A stretch of 49,437 nucleotides of DNA. It comes from a virus. Taxonomy: Duplodnaviria; Caudoviricetes. Within the stretch, counting starts at the first letter, position 1, and every line of letters begins with the position of its first letter. Made by a program: the position numbers and the translations under genes. The notes under the pieces were generated by a model. That model ran no database searches, had not been told where the DNA came from, and saw only the letters and a program-made list of their open reading frames with translations. The stretch lies in IMG/VR virus record IMGVR_UViG_3300020045_001925, positions 1 through 49,437 of that record; one strand, given 5' to 3'. Shown here piece after piece: positions 12,891 through 36,387 of the stretch.

Positions 12891-12931
12891 TTATGATTGA
12901 CACCTTTGGCAAGCGTGATATTATCGTAGCT

Positions 12932-14044
12932 ATGCGCATTTTAATTAATGATCGTTCGAGTTATCAAATCACCCATCGGGAAATTACGCCCGAGGGATTT
13001 TTGCGCGTTCCCGGACACGTCGCACGCTCCGGTATTCAGCATTATCTCGCCAGTGAGTTACAATTGCCCGGCGATCCGTCGCGTGTTGTTGCAGTGTACC
13101 GACCGCCCGAAGAAGTATTCAATGCTGATTCGCTTGCTTCATACGACGGCTCAGACATTACTCTAAATCACCCTGACGAACTTGTCAACACTTCCAACTA
13201 TAAAAAAGTTTCGGTAGGTGTTGTTGTCGGCCCGGGTGTGCAAGACGGCGACTTCGTGCAGTGTAGCCACATCATCAAAGACGGTGAGGCGATTGCAGCG
13301 GTACAAGGCGGCAAGTGTGAACTTAGCGCGGGGTACACGTCCGAGTACGACGCAACGCCAGGTGTAACGCCCGACGGTCAGCCTTATGAATTTATCCAAC
13401 GTAGTATCAGCATCAACCACATCGCAATCGTTGACCGCGCGCGAGCCGGACGACAAGCGCGAATTTTTGATAACCAACCCGGAGGCAAACCAATGCCCGT
13501 AACAATCGTACTTGATAGCGGACGCAGCATTGACGTTGCCGACGCGGCAAATGCTCAAGTTGTAGCCGATGCGTTTGATCGTTTGAAAGCGGCACTCACA
13601 GTTGCAACAGGTTCAGCAGAAGGTGCTCAAGCCACAATCGACGGCCTGACTGAGAAAGTCGCGGCGTTGACTCTCGTGTCTAGCGATGCTGAAATCTCAA
13701 AACGTGTCGCATCAATCGCACAGGTTCAAACCGTAGCGCGCAAGATCGTTGGTGATTCGTTCACTTGCGCTAGCGTTGACACTGTGGAGATCATGCGCGC
13801 CGCGATGACCATCGCCAATCCGAAACGTGATTGGTCGAACAAGTCGGCCGACTATGTGAAATGTGCTTTTGACGCTGCTGAAGAAGAAGCCGAAGAAGAA
13901 AAAGAAGATGACAAAGCAGCTAAAGAACAGTTGAAAAACTTGTCTAAAGATGCAGCGTCTGACACTGTAACCAAAGATAGCGCGCCAGTTGTATCGCGCG
14001 CACAAGCTAATCTAGCTGCACGCACTGGTAAAGGGGCGAAATAA
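12932..14044 (+). CDS. Prohead protease/scaffold (DUF2213)
   Basis: TPEGFL, VYRPPEEVF, TLNHP, ELSAGY, NHIAIVDRARAG motifs; acidic coiled-coil C-terminus. Confidence 0.88.
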   Translation: MRILINDRSSYQITHREITPEGFLRVPGHVARSGIQHYLASELQLPGDPSRVVAVYRPPEEVFNADSLASYDGSDITLNHPDELVNTSNYKKVSVGVVVGPGVQDGDFVQCSHIIKDGEAIAAVQGGKCELSAGYTSEYDATPGVTPDGQPYEFIQRSISINHIAIVDRARAGRQARIFDNQPGGKPMPVTIVLDSGRSIDVADAANAQVVADAFDRLKAALTVATGSAEGAQATIDGLTEKVAALTLVSSDAEISKRVASIAQVQTVARKIVGDSFTCASVDTVEIMRAAMTIANPKRDWSNKSADYVKCAFDAAEEEAEEEKEDDKAAKEQLKNLSKDAASDTVTKDSAPVVSRAQANLAARTGKGAK

Positions 14045-16000: not shown

Positions 16001-16279
16001 ATGACCTGCATCACTATTGTGAAATATGCACTCGGCAATGATAACTACGAGTTCAAACCGGACGGCTTCAGCAGCGTTGTGAATATCCGTAACGACGGTC
16101 CCGGTCCCGCTACGGTTCAGATTCAAGTCGGCTCAGAGCTTGTGCTGGCGAACTATAACGAACCGAAAACGCTACTCCTGGGTGATACTGTACAGCAAGC
16201 AATCCCCGAGGCGTATCATCGCGGCTTGCTGATCGTCACGGCAAACACCGGTTCGATTACTGCGGAGTTGACAAAATGA
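16001..16279 (+). CDS. Hypothetical beta-rich virion protein
   Basis: GAGGA SD; ATGA-coupled to next gene. Confidence 0.65.
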   Translation: MTCITIVKYALGNDNYEFKPDGFSSVVNIRNDGPGPATVQIQVGSELVLANYNEPKTLLLGDTVQQAIPEAYHRGLLIVTANTGSITAELTK

Positions 16280-17958
16280 GCGGCAATTGGAATCAGAAAT
16301 ACGAGGGGTCGTCAGGTGGATCAGGCGACTTAATTCCGGTACTAAGTAGTTCGCGAAAAGGTGTAATTAAAAAGAAATCATCAAAATTGATCTATGACTT
16401 TGCAAGCCCACTTGCAACAGGTCAGGCCGTCACAGCAATCACGAAATCTGCATCAAGCGATTATCCGCGATGGGCTATTGAAAATTTAAAATGCGACTTA
16501 ACAAGTGCGTCAGCTCAATTACGAATCCAGAACCAAGCATGGACACTTGATCCGACGGACATGCTGCTGGCTATTGATGTATATATTCCGTTCATCGTTG
16601 TTAGTCCAATGTCTATCAATGTGACCATATTCAATTCATCAAATTACTCGGGTGTATATACAGAATATACATTTGACTCAGGATATCTGCGTCAAGGATG
16701 GAACAGCCTTCGCATGTGGGGTGGCGATACAACGGGGTCAACAGGCACAGGAACTCTGGCAGCGGGGGCTGGTAAGTCAAATATTGGAGGCGGTTGTAAC
16801 CATACTGCTGCAATCGGGTATTGTGAAATTCTTATTCAGAATATGAACGGAAAATCCGTATACATTGATCAAGCAAGACGTGGCGCAAAATTCACCCCCG
16901 CAATTGTGATGGGATTTGATGCAACGGGTAATAATTCATCGGATGATGTATTTGTAAAAACTGGAGGAGTAGCTGCAGCAATGCGGGAGAGGGGTGTTAC
17001 TGGATATTTCACATCCACACAAATATACGATCTTCAATACGGCGGAAGTGCCGACGATGTTCGCAAAGACACACTGTACACCGACTATGGGTGGGATTGC
17101 ATTAATCACTCGTGGTCGCATGGTGCAACACATCCTGGAGGTTCACGCACTGTCACCGCATCACGTACCTCAAATGTGGTGACTTTAACTTATGCAGTCG
17201 GTCAGCTTGAATTGCCGACGGGTAGTGTGTTTTATCAGACCGTTTCAGGCGCAACGCCGGCAGATGTGAACGGTCGTTTCCGCAGCGTGATTACTTCGTC
17301 AACGACTGCAACGTATACTGCTGCGGGTGTGGATGGTGCCGCTACAGGAACGATCAAAGCTTCAACACTTATTCAAGACGTTGTAACTGGTACTGATTCA
17401 GTATCACAAATGATTATTGATATGGAAGTCGGTGCAATCAATAAAGCATCCAGAATGAGGGGATTTTATAGAGGACTTTCTCTAGGGGCGTGGCCTAATA
17501 ATTCGTGCGGCGATATTGTGGCTACAAAAACAGCGTGTGATAAAGCAGGCGTGAATTATTTCCGATCTGCTAAGGGTAGAACTGTTAAGTTGTCAGAATT
17601 TGGCGTCGATAACCAATATAATTTTGGGTCTATTGAAATGGGGAGCGGTGTCGCAGCCACTACGGTGACAACTTTAAAAAATGCGTTACTTGGTGCTATT
17701 GGTCGCGGCGAGCATCTTTGGACATTTGGACATCACGTGCTAGATGAGACAACACTCGGAACGTCTGTCGATTTAGAATATCCTCCGTCATCGGGTGGTA
17801 ATCCGGCACCCCCAACAACATCGCTACCCTCCGGCTGGTGGTATCTTGGTTCAATCAAACGATTCATTGATGAAGCAGTATTACCCGCTGTTCAGAGTGA
17901 CGGACTATTAATACTAACCCCATCCGAGTGGGAAAATAATTTAAGGAACGTGAAATGA
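16276..17958 (+). CDS. Putative polysaccharide deacetylase (CE4/NodB-like) domain protein, probably virion-associated
   Basis: IVMGFDA, GWDCINHSWSH, AWPN, WTFGHH motifs in CE4 order; inserted beta-sandwich; more AT-rich than flanks. Confidence 0.65.
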   Translation: MSGNWNQKYEGSSGGSGDLIPVLSSSRKGVIKKKSSKLIYDFASPLATGQAVTAITKSASSDYPRWAIENLKCDLTSASAQLRIQNQAWTLDPTDMLLAIDVYIPFIVVSPMSINVTIFNSSNYSGVYTEYTFDSGYLRQGWNSLRMWGGDTTGSTGTGTLAAGAGKSNIGGGCNHTAAIGYCEILIQNMNGKSVYIDQARRGAKFTPAIVMGFDATGNNSSDDVFVKTGGVAAAMRERGVTGYFTSTQIYDLQYGGSADDVRKDTLYTDYGWDCINHSWSHGATHPGGSRTVTASRTSNVVTLTYAVGQLELPTGSVFYQTVSGATPADVNGRFRSVITSSTTATYTAAGVDGAATGTIKASTLIQDVVTGTDSVSQMIIDMEVGAINKASRMRGFYRGLSLGAWPNNSCGDIVATKTACDKAGVNYFRSAKGRTVKLSEFGVDNQYNFGSIEMGSGVAATTVTTLKNALLGAIGRGEHLWTFGHHVLDETTLGTSVDLEYPPSSGGNPAPPTTSLPSGWWYLGSIKRFIDEAVLPAVQSDGLLILTPSEWENNLRNVK

Positions 17959-18417: not shown

Positions 18418-19350
18418 ATGACTGAAATGACGTTAGACGCACACGAACACCGTTCGGAGCGCCGCTTTGACATTCTGAAAAATTTAATCACCGATGAGGG
18501 TCGTACCATGGAAAAAGATCACGTGAAAGTTGAAAACATTTTTAAAGGCCCAAGCGATGCGGGCGGCGGCGGTATGGCGGCAGTTTTGCCCGCACTCTTG
18601 GCGGGTCGTCACGATGGTGGACTGGCTGGCGGCTTGGGTGGCCTCGCGGCTGGCGGCTTGGGCGGTTTAGTGCTCGGCTCGTTGCTCAATCGCGGAGGTC
18701 TGTTAGGCGGTGGTGCTGATGACGGCTCTGAAACGCGCTTACAAGCCACGATTGAAAACACCACATTGCTGAACGGTTTAGGCGACATTAAAGCGGCTGT
18801 AGCATTGACCGCCGCGCAGACTGAGAACGTTATCGGCGCGCAAACTGTGGCGTTACAATCAACACTCAGCAACCTGGCACTTGGTCAATTGACCGCAACA
18901 AGTCAAGTCAAAGACACTGTGAACCAAGGTACGTTGTTGACCTTACAAGCGACCAATGTGGCTTCGGATCGTGCTGCGGCAAGTGCTGCCGCGTTGGCGG
19001 CTCAAACTGCTGCGGGATTCAATGAAACTCAAGCCTTAATCAACTCAATCAACACGCAGAATATTAGCCGTGAATTGAGCGACACTAAAGCGGCATTGAT
19101 CGAAGAGCGTTCCGACCATCGCCTAGCAAGTGCCGGCATCACGATCACAAATAACAACAACGCCACGGCCAATGCGCTTGCTGCTCAATCGCAACAACAG
19201 CAACAATTGCAAGCCATTATCCAGCTTGGCGCTGCTGTGCAAAACTTGGCAAATGATGTGCAAGTAGTGCGCCAAGGGCAAACAATTTTCAATTCAGGCA
19301 CTATGGCGGCATCCGGTACACAAGCTGCGGCAAATACTCGCGTCAACTAA
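18418..19350 (+). CDS. Glycine-zipper / coiled-coil protein
   Basis: GGLAGGLGGLAAGGLGGLVLGSLL then long Ala/Gln/Thr/Asn-rich helical region; AAGGAG SD. Confidence 0.8.
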   Translation: MTEMTLDAHEHRSERRFDILKNLITDEGRTMEKDHVKVENIFKGPSDAGGGGMAAVLPALLAGRHDGGLAGGLGGLAAGGLGGLVLGSLLNRGGLLGGGADDGSETRLQATIENTTLLNGLGDIKAAVALTAAQTENVIGAQTVALQSTLSNLALGQLTATSQVKDTVNQGTLLTLQATNVASDRAAASAAALAAQTAAGFNETQALINSINTQNISRELSDTKAALIEERSDHRLASAGITITNNNNATANALAAQSQQQQQLQAIIQLGAAVQNLANDVQVVRQGQTIFNSGTMAASGTQAAANTRVN

Positions 19351-34823: not shown

Positions 34824-35000
34824 ATGACATTTATTGACATCATCGGCACGGCTGCTCAAATTGTTGGGACAGCTTCCACAATTGCAGCGATATTGCCTCA
34901 AGCGAACCGCGCAGTACCTATTTTACGTGTACTGCGCGGTATTCTTGACTTTTTAGCGCTCAATGTGGGCAATGCTAGAAACGAGACAAAGCCTGGTTGA
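34824..35000 (+). CDS. 58-aa amphipathic lysis-associated (holin-like) protein (not in ORF track)
   Basis: MTFIDIIGTAAQIVGTASTIAAILPQANRAVPILRVLRGILDFLALNVGNARNETKPG; GGGG SD; adjacent to endolysin. Confidence 0.6.
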   Translation: MTFIDIIGTAAQIVGTASTIAAILPQANRAVPILRVLRGILDFLALNVGNARNETKPG

Positions 35001-35472
35001 TTGTGATTTTACCCATGCACAGGTCGCGTTCCACTATTCTTCGAGTGTAAACACCTGTGCATGATCGATCTTTTGAACAATCCTTTCCCGCTACGTAGCG
35101 CCATTTCGTAAACTCTCCGCACGCCTCGTTATACTTCCCTTGCTGCAAATATTTCCAAAGTGTGGATTTCGTAGCATTCGTTGCGCCTACGTTATAAACC
35201 CAATCGAGTGTTGCAAGATGCACATTGTCCGGTAACTCGTTCGGTAGTTTGGTCAATGGCTCGTTGTGAGTCAATAGTGATTTGATCAATTGTGAGTCGC
35301 ATTGCTCGCGGGTGGCCGCATCTCCACGCTTTACACCTTTGGTTTCCCCGTAACATATTGTCCAGACGTTCCCCGCGTCAGGATATGCCTTCGTGCTGAA
35401 CCCTTCAAACTGGGTCGTTAGTGCTACCGCCATGACGAGCACGCCCCCGCCTAAAATGTTTCGCTTTTGCAT
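34975..35472 (-). CDS. SAR endolysin (T4-lysozyme-like, GH24)
   Basis: E-x8-D-x5-T triad (FEGFSTKAYPDAGNVWT); Gly-rich hydrophobic N-terminus; GAGGT SD before ATG 35472. Confidence 0.92.
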   Translation of the reverse strand: MQKRNILGGGVLVMAVALTTQFEGFSTKAYPDAGNVWTICYGETKGVKRGDAATREQCDSQLIKSLLTHNEPLTKLPNELPDNVHLATLDWVYNVGATNATKSTLWKYLQQGKYNEACGEFTKWRYVAGKDCSKDRSCTGVYTRRIVERDLCMGKITINQALSRF

Positions 35473-35525
35473 ACTTACCTCTTTGTGTAAAATGACCATT
35501 ATCAACCAACTAAGGTGCAACCGTC

Positions 35526-35696
35526 ATGAATAAATTATCAACAAGGGTTGGAATTAAAGACATCGGTGGCCGCGGTATGCCTGCTAAGAATGCATCGGGA
35601 ACGGCGACGGGTGACATTGGCGGTCGTGGTCTACCGGCTAAGAATTCCCAAGGCGACACGTTAATGGCTCGCATGGGTATCGGGCGCAAAAAATGA
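35526..35696 (+). CDS. 56-aa peptide with two DIGGRGxPAKN repeats (not in ORF track)
   Basis: AAGGTG SD; repeats differ mainly at synonymous positions; stop overlaps next ATG. Confidence 0.7.
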   Translation: MNKLSTRVGIKDIGGRGMPAKNASGTATGDIGGRGLPAKNSQGDTLMARMGIGRKK

Positions 35697-36148
35697 TAAT
35701 GAACGCGATATTGGTGACACTATGCCTGAGCGTGGTATACCGCCCGTCATGGGTGACCGCAGGGTACGTGTCGCTGACTATCGCGTTCGACTATCTCACA
35801 TCAAATTATCTCGGCAGCCATTATTACAGCTACGCCGCATTTATTGACCTACTTGTGATTTTATTGATCTACGCACAGCGTCCGACACGACGTGGATTAA
35901 GATTGATGATGTTAAGTTGTGTTTCAATTACAAACAACAGTATAGGTTGGGTAATTTGGAATGCAGGGTATCCGCCAGTCGTTTACAATATGCTGTCATA
36001 CGCCCTATACGGGGCAGCTATTTACATGATCTGCATGAAGGATACAGACGATGTGGCGCTTTATAGAATATCTAGGTTACGCGCTGTCATTCGTGGTGAT
36101 GCTGATTCAAGGTTTAGCAATGTTCAAAGAGGTGCGAAAGCGCTATGA
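35693..36148 (+). CDS. Multi-pass membrane protein
   Basis: Four to five hydrophobic segments; ATGA coupling at both ends. Confidence 0.75.
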   Translation: MIMNAILVTLCLSVVYRPSWVTAGYVSLTIAFDYLTSNYLGSHYYSYAAFIDLLVILLIYAQRPTRRGLRLMMLSCVSITNNSIGWVIWNAGYPPVVYNMLSYALYGAAIYMICMKDTDDVALYRISRLRAVIRGDADSRFSNVQRGAKAL

Positions 36149-36236
36149 GTTTTACAGACGGAAGATTAGGTTCAGCAGTGGCAACGGGAACGACCGGAAC
36201 GGGTCTAGCGACATGGATGCAGATGATCCCGAATGA
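36051..36236 (+). CDS. Overlapping single-TM protein (antiholin/holin-like)
   Basis: AAGGA SD; TM FIEYLGYALSFVVMLIQGLAMF then basic KEVRKRYEFYRRKIR. Confidence 0.4.
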   Translation: MWRFIEYLGYALSFVVMLIQGLAMFKEVRKRYEFYRRKIRFSSGNGNDRNGSSDMDADDPE

Positions 36237-36387
36237 CATCGGTAAATTTGGCGTGCTGATGGGCGCTATTTTATCGACGGTGCTGATCGTTTCCCACATC
36301 CTAAAAACGCGCCAAGACGTTCGAGAAGGCGCGTTACGTGAAGAATTATTACGCGCCAAGATCGACGCGTTTAACAACGAGGATTAA
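36145..36387 (+). CDS. Putative holin
   Basis: 80 aa, one or two hydrophobic segments, charged C-terminus, near endolysin. Confidence 0.55.
   Translation: MSFTDGRLGSAVATGTTGTGLATWMQMIPNDIGKFGVLMGAILSTVLIVSHILKTRQDVREGALREELLRAKIDAFNNED

Follow-up and report, generated by a model that had tools for sequence, protein, structure and literature searches.

A four-gene unit of a basic peptide, a candidate membrane receptor and a holin-like protein in viruses of Gram-negative bacteria

Introduction

Communication between phages is known in the form of arbitrium, or of lysis inhibition with a signal that is DNA-like (T4) or unknown (N4). Arbitrium (AimP-AimR-AimX), found in temperate Bacillus phages, is described as relying on a secreted precursor, on uptake by Opp and on the control of lysogeny by a TPR receptor in the cytoplasm (PMC11945551). 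In T4, which has the holin T and the antiholins RI and RIII, periplasmic RI is thought to relay the superinfection signal to the holin; published accounts give DNA in the periplasm as the signal and soluble RI as the sensor (PMC6832632, PMC12642591). Lysis inhibition in N4 involves the pinholin gp63, which has a cytoplasmic receiver domain, the regulator gp62 and the SAR endolysin gp61; its signal and its sensor are unknown (PMC12642591).

Here we examine a complete virus record of 49,437 bp (the window, meaning this whole stretch of DNA), whose kin are dwarf myoviruses (jedunaviruses, MSW-3, PEAT2 and phiPLPE). It contains a unit of four genes: a basic peptide A, a five-helix membrane protein B, a nested one-helix protein C and a holin-like protein D. 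As in arbitrium, a short phage peptide with repeated cores lies beside a candidate receptor, and its precursor may be processed. In contrast to arbitrium, the peptide has no export signal, the candidate receptor is a membrane protein, the hosts are Gram-negative, the proposed output is at a holin, and the motif code is largely shared. A sequence-only reading of this DNA had pointed out that the unit contains neither a signal peptide nor an AimR-like protein, and we find the same; where arbitrium has a TPR (RRNPP) receptor, the neighbour of the peptide here is a 151-aa membrane protein without a Pfam or NCBIfam match.

The likeness to T4 lies in a probably strictly lytic myophage and in the proposed relay of a superinfection signal from the periplasm to a holin. 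In our unit, however, a dedicated peptide motif would serve as the signal and a five-helix membrane protein as the sensor, D lacks the large soluble domain of holin T, and none of A, B, C and D matched the RI, RIII or T-type families. No report of lysis delayed by superinfection in these phage genera was found in the literature searched. N4 resembles our unit in combining a SAR endolysin with a pinholin-type timer and an extra membrane regulator, and differs in the receiver domain of gp63; no N4-like record carrying B was present among the matches listed. In Agr and Com quorum sensing, a peptide gene lies beside a multi-helix membrane sensor with an outward-facing site; in contrast, B has no kinase domain, the unit has no processing exporter and its neighbours are holin-like. 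For membrane peptide sensors in general (AgrC, LytS 5TM, MASE), fold searches of B gave generic helical bundles. By hydropathy and alignment, D resembles the phage 21 pinholin S21: it has two helices, the first weakly hydrophobic and rich in Gly, Ala and Thr and the second strong, followed by a charged tail, and its partner is a SAR-like lysozyme. It differs in that 34 members gave no Pfam holin match and only weak PHROG holin matches. The lysis suppressors of CSP1, set apart by their description, look unrelated (PMC13577005).

The unit would act like lysis inhibition, yet belongs to none of the families compared. The available part of a group description of these phages mentions no such unit (PMC3391216), none was described in the literature searched (subscription journals and preprint supplements lay outside its coverage), and a search for the motif gave one unrelated paper. 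If our preferred reading is true, a genetically defined peptide and membrane receptor coupled to a holin would be a third kind of phage communication.

Layout of the unit and its peptide gene

The features of the window that bear on the unit are collected in Table 1. The sequence-only reading had proposed an operon of three genes, divergent from an endolysin. Its peptide sequence was exactly as we obtain it, the ATGA overlaps that it described are present at the A/B (35693-35696) and B/D (36145-36148) junctions, and the endolysin is indeed divergent. It overlooked gene C, which is nested in the +1 frame across the B/D junction.

Table 1. Positions of the four-gene unit and associated features in the window
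Feature	Position	Strand	Remarks
Gene A, 56-aa basic peptide	35526..35696	+	11 K/R, 3 D/E, two motif copies, each after Asp
Motif copy 1 in gene A, D-I-G-G-R-G core	35559..35591	+	Codon comparison
Motif copy 2 in gene A, D-I-G-G-R-G core	35613..35645	+	Codon comparison
Gene B, 151-aa five-helix membrane protein, candidate receptor	35693..36148	+	phrog_15451 (unknown function)
Gene C, 61-aa single-helix membrane protein, unannotated	36051..36236	+	+1 frame across B end/D start
Gene D, 80-aa holin-like protein	36145..36387	+	phrog_13707
Phage lysozyme with SAR-like N-terminus	34975..35472	-	PF00959, phrog_7; divergent from unit
DUF2213 head protease/scaffold, candidate processing enzyme for A	12893..14044	+	Motif absent from the window's copy
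Candidate sigma-70-type promoter of unit	35466..35493	+	TTTGCA, 16 nt, TAAAAT

The two 11-aa repeats of A had been noted to differ mostly at silent sites, and this is borne out: five codons are identical, five synonymous and one non-synonymous. Against the orthologue in the close relative L002, 27 of the 56 codons are identical, 19 synonymous and 10 non-synonymous, and 24 of the 41 nucleotide differences fall at third positions. Judged from its codons, gene A is a real coding sequence under selection.

Among divergent phages the peptide is conserved, selected and tied to B. The 11-aa repeat did not hold up as the core; what is conserved is a G-G-x-G-[KR] motif of about eight residues, typically x-G-G-[RN]-G-K-[QT]-R. 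In 101 copies, the first two glycines are present in 100 and 101 and the third in 93, followed by Lys or Arg in 86 and by Arg two positions further in 82. The window's clade and the jedunaviruses have variant motifs. We therefore rejected the idea of a private peptide code that co-varies with its receptor, since the motif, although it varies by lineage, is close to universal and its G-G-x-G positions are fixed in at least 93 of 101 copies.

Of 77 non-redundant B loci, 76 have 200 bases upstream, and in 66 of these a motif peptide lies directly upstream of B (phiPLPE is counted as positive though a frameshift separates its motif copies). These peptides are 17-56 aa long and carry one copy of the motif (33), two (31) or three (2). 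When loci were picked by a DNA pattern of B only, 24 of 25 had a motif peptide. When they were picked by the motif only, B lay right behind in 15 of 65, and most of the others look like chance frames. Neither the window peptide nor 66 relatives showed an N-terminal secretion signal or a hydrophobic or amphipathic stretch (highest 8-residue hydropathy 1.49), and an Atlas look-alike search with A returned leads below 0.8 only.

Three records contain frameshifts: phiPLPE (L007) in A, at an A run, RCIP0033 (L037) in the middle of B, and KpTDp1 (L013) in the tail of B. These are sequencing errors or natural mutants, and the latter could have a lysis phenotype.

Proteins B, C and D

The relatives of B form 706 clusters at 50% identity, and the best 150 listed are 93-200 aa long, save for one 571-aa record with multiple matches. 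They belong to no named Pfam or NCBIfam family; of 144 members, one matches MASE8 (E 5e-4) and one Exosortase_EpsH (E 6e-5). The 151 residues of the window's B have no Pfam match and hold no kinase or other output domain. Where the earlier estimate was four to five transmembrane segments, an AlphaFold2 model from 144 sequences (pLDDT 87) predicts five helices rather than four. Foldseek with this model returned nothing at E<=0.001, and the best VIA-align hit, at Z 10.7 (rmsd 3.3, 115 aligned), was a designed helical bundle and lies below the bar for bundles. An earlier low-confidence model (pLDDT 66) gave generic fold matches only, and Atlas look-alikes were limited to unnamed viral clusters.

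Conserved residues of B include G41, Y44, Y45, D52, N82, G85, W89, P95, Y98 and Y106. Only G85 and Y98 are invariant among the 144 sequences, which argues against an enzyme. Lys and Arg cluster in the loops 16-21, 60-73 and 114-120. According to the positive-inside rule, loops rich in Lys and Arg mark the cytoplasmic side, and from this charge bias alone we infer that these three loops are cytoplasmic. The regions 32-45 and 85-99, on the opposite side, are acidic. Of 15 columns conserved at 75% or more, 8 fall in these two outer regions; the three cytoplasmic segments tested contain no such column. The conserved acidic and aromatic residues cluster on the predicted periplasmic face. In a protein encoded beside a basic peptide, an outward side with residues of this kind points to a possible receptor. 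The proposal that B is the cognate receptor of A is thereby supported by the model as far as a receptor-like layout is concerned.

Gene C begins just past the last helix of B and extends into D. In a fixed-anchor test of 69 complete loci, the +1 frame was open for at least 35 codons in 63 and hydrophobic in 62, whereas the +2 frame was open in 3 and hydrophobic in none. The six loci that read as closed are anchor artefacts, C starting there just behind a stop. A start codon for C was found in 48 distinct sequences listed, with a purine-rich site before it in most, and the window's C has its own Shine-Dalgarno-like site. A programmed frameshift from B to C was considered and set aside, as C has its own start and a ribosome-binding-like site in 48 loci. 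This conserved nested gene is missing from the annotations of all relatives' records examined. One entry (P0066) is a B-C fusion protein, natural or artefactual. Homology between C and D was not detectable (hhalign probability 10.7%).

In D, the first helix is only weakly hydrophobic and rich in Gly and Thr, the second is strong, and the tail is charged. Its matches to holin families are weak (5 of 34 members to the holin phrog_4237, best E 9.6e-7), and in one relative's record it is annotated as a holin. B and C are translationally interlocked with D in every locus whose surroundings are complete.

The motif in the head scaffold

A is absent upstream of B in 10 of the 76 loci, of which nine have the motif elsewhere or have a motif-bearing close relative, mostly in DUF2213. 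Six of the ten have the motif in their own genome's DUF2213 head protease/scaffold. For Rostov M3 the record is incomplete, and its relative CP-T1 shares its layout and has the scaffold motif; in L043 the peptide directly follows D but is encoded on the other strand. L278 has, upstream of B, a short peptide with one N-terminal membrane helix and a variant motif at its end. The charges of this peptide would put the motif in the cytoplasm, which counts against an outward-sensing model. The 6.5-kb fragment L025 is the sole locus of the ten without an account. The L278 peptide has the form of a tethered ligand.

Among 41 near-complete DUF2213 genomes, six have the motif in the scaffold. B is present in 6 of these 6 and in 8 of 34 motif-free genomes, one truncated scaffold having been dropped (p=0.0008), and in the 14 B-bearing genomes A is absent from 5 of 6 with the scaffold motif and present in 8 of 8 without it (p=0.003); because the loci are phylogenetically related, both p-values overstate the support. 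In PEAT2 the motif occurs in A as well as in the scaffold, as one and the same variant. When mapped on the tree of B, the scaffold-motif state requires 4 changes (bootstrap 3-4), at least 2 of them forced. In further scaffold relatives, counted by eye, the motif occurs at the same spot in 12 of 120, once in tandem. These comparisons show that the motif has been exchanged between gene A and the head scaffold.

The scaffold motif is flanked by two Asp residues with a spacing of about 9-14. Of the motif copies in gene A, 18 of 20 follow Asp in 13 DUF2213 genomes, as opposed to 0 of 19 in 13 genomes in which no DUF2213 was found; three further copies that the counting pattern missed (in L002 and the window) also follow Asp. 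This restriction to DUF2213 phages suggests release by the head protease. In the scaffold half, Asp makes up 7 of 30 conserved columns, compared with 10% of its residues. We infer from these sequences that the head protease would cleave after Asp and free the core, while common descent from a scaffold segment would also produce the Asp pattern. Asp-specific cleavage by DUF2213 was not found in the literature searched, and the PDB relatives of the capsid protein revealed no cleavage sites. In prophages without B, a looser basic Gly/Lys stretch occupies the same scaffold position, so an ordinary linker may have been the origin of the scaffold motif.

The portal protein begins with the exact motif, followed by Asp, in two complete genomes that are nearly identical (L112 and L150; G020 and G021). 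These genomes contain no B, C or D, which counts against a model of signalling from motif to B. The portal motif is a matter of chance, a decoy, or the sign of an undetected receptor.

Lysis neighbourhood, promoter and range

The endolysin adjacency noted earlier holds in the window and fails as a general rule. An endolysin lies within ~1.7 kb in 10 of 18 non-duplicate B-pattern loci (28 of 58 neighbours, plus one further, were submitted for this count), and in 4_L372X, phiA005 and phiPLPE it is not adjacent to the unit. The endolysins beside the unit belong to four PHROG families, three of them other than the window's, and a separate holin is present in several relatives. In PEi21, the gene in the slot of the window's lysozyme is annotated 'putative SAR endolysin'. 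The varied endolysins, the non-adjacency and the separate holins indicate that the unit travels as a cassette among lysis systems. Its role may be to regulate lysis rather than to time it single-handedly.

Taken alone, the candidate promoter of the window is not significant, with 4 such sites found and 3.0 expected, and TG is absent at the right spacing from its -10. A TG-extended -10 lies within 70 nt of the A start in 27 of 65 loci, compared with a mean of 1.8 and a maximum of 5 in shuffles. It is therefore probable that the unit is transcribed from a promoter of its own.

The myoviruses that carry B have head modules of at least two kinds, and one record with B has a podovirus-like head-closure gene. 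The named hosts of B phages are Proteobacteria, and cultured phages with the unit infect Klebsiella, Edwardsiella, Pectobacterium, Aeromonas and Vibrio. None of 11 proviruses, which may represent few lineages, contained B, as opposed to 14 of 30 other DUF2213 records, and two exact-pattern scans, which divergent members could escape, found none in bacterial genome contigs. This absence from proviruses and bacterial genomes fits a strictly lytic strategy. CP-T1 is reported to be temperate but to lack known lysogeny genes (PMC3391216). The CP-T1 record (L038) has B-C-D and the scaffold motif, and its 'lysogeny' might be a long lysis delay.

Discussion

Our preferred reading, to which we assign a probability of about one half, is that B binds a peptide signal coming from other infections and that lysis is then delayed via C and D. 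The operon would be driven by its own host-type promoter, placing B, C and D in the inner membrane during infection. In the window's phage, the DUF2213 protease would cut A after Asp and free two cores; in relatives it would cut the same core out of the scaffold. Since A has no export signal, the core would spread to other cells through lysis or inside superinfecting virions, and passage of a ~1.3 kDa peptide across the outer membrane is accounted for only by virion carriage. The core would then bind the acidic, aromatic outer pocket of B, and B-C would restrain D, so that the SAR endolysin remains tethered for longer. By analogy with lysis inhibition in T4 and N4, the direction of the effect is probably a delay. 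More tentatively, and with odds somewhat against it, we may be looking at peptide communication among virulent phages of Gram-negative bacteria, with a protease-cut or multi-copy motif and a five-helix receptor wired to a holin.

The Asp sites also lend themselves to a different arrangement, an internal assembly checkpoint in which the protease frees the motif in the cytoplasm as proheads mature and B reads it from inside, licensing lysis. It would make sense of the scaffold motif between Asp residues, the motif after Asp only in DUF2213 phages, the missing export signal of A, and the membrane-anchored L278 variant, which would face the cytoplasm. We regard this checkpoint as unlikely, because the highly conserved columns of B all lie outside its cytoplasmic loops, which share the basic character of the peptide, and 13 non-DUF2213 genomes have the motif without an Asp site and presumably co-expressed with B, where it would say little on assembly. 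The predicted outward-facing pocket of B would also suit superinfection exclusion or kin recognition, with B and C sensing the motif on material brought in by a related phage and blocking or aborting its entry, and with D as a mere neighbour. A near-universal motif, present on a head protein, and a probable promoter of the unit's own would fit that role; the translational interlock of B and C with holin-like D, and their frequent position within lysis cassettes, make it quite improbable.

Polar residues inside the helices of B (H32 66%, D52 87%, S78 62%, N82 91%) and the single exosortase match raise the question of whether B, as a membrane enzyme or an exporter of the AgrB or exosortase type, might process A or carry it out of the cell, with the active product working elsewhere. 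Only two positions are invariant, no catalytic set is kept, the window's B has Phe at 32, and B is retained where the motif lies within the scaffold, so an enzymatic role seems very doubtful. The least probable account, in our judgement, is that A serves simply as a cationic toxin or aid to lysis and B as its immunity protein, without any signalling. A is short, basic and near lysis genes, but it has no hydrophobic or amphipathic stretch, its conservation is restricted to a glycine-rich motif, and this motif can relocate to the scaffold; the immunity role that the sequence-only reading had offered for B as an alternative is a poor fit.

If lysis delay by a peptide signal is the true function, the near-universal motif would allow unrelated phages to overhear one another, and the delay signal of lytic phages would be open to study by synthetic peptides and four small deletions. 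Among the phages with the unit are jedunaviruses under study for therapy, a use in which the yield and the time of lysis are important.

Several further genes of the window were observed in passing. A 58-aa cationic, amphipathic-looking ORF (34824-35000, + strand; phrog_9685) is convergent with the endolysin. No spanin pair was found in this slot, a lipobox scan yielding no credible lipoprotein, and the close relative L002 has spanin-like genes in the slot of the phrog_9685 ORF. The phiKT protein gp28 is said to be a spanin replacement, and by analogy the phrog_9685 ORF may replace spanins in the same way. In the head region, a 310-aa Gly/Ala/Gln-rich protein without a Pfam match is inserted (18418-19350, + strand), and the capsid genes are followed by a 560-aa protein (16276-17958, + strand), also without a Pfam match, a stretch of which presumably resembles a polysaccharide deacetylase motif.
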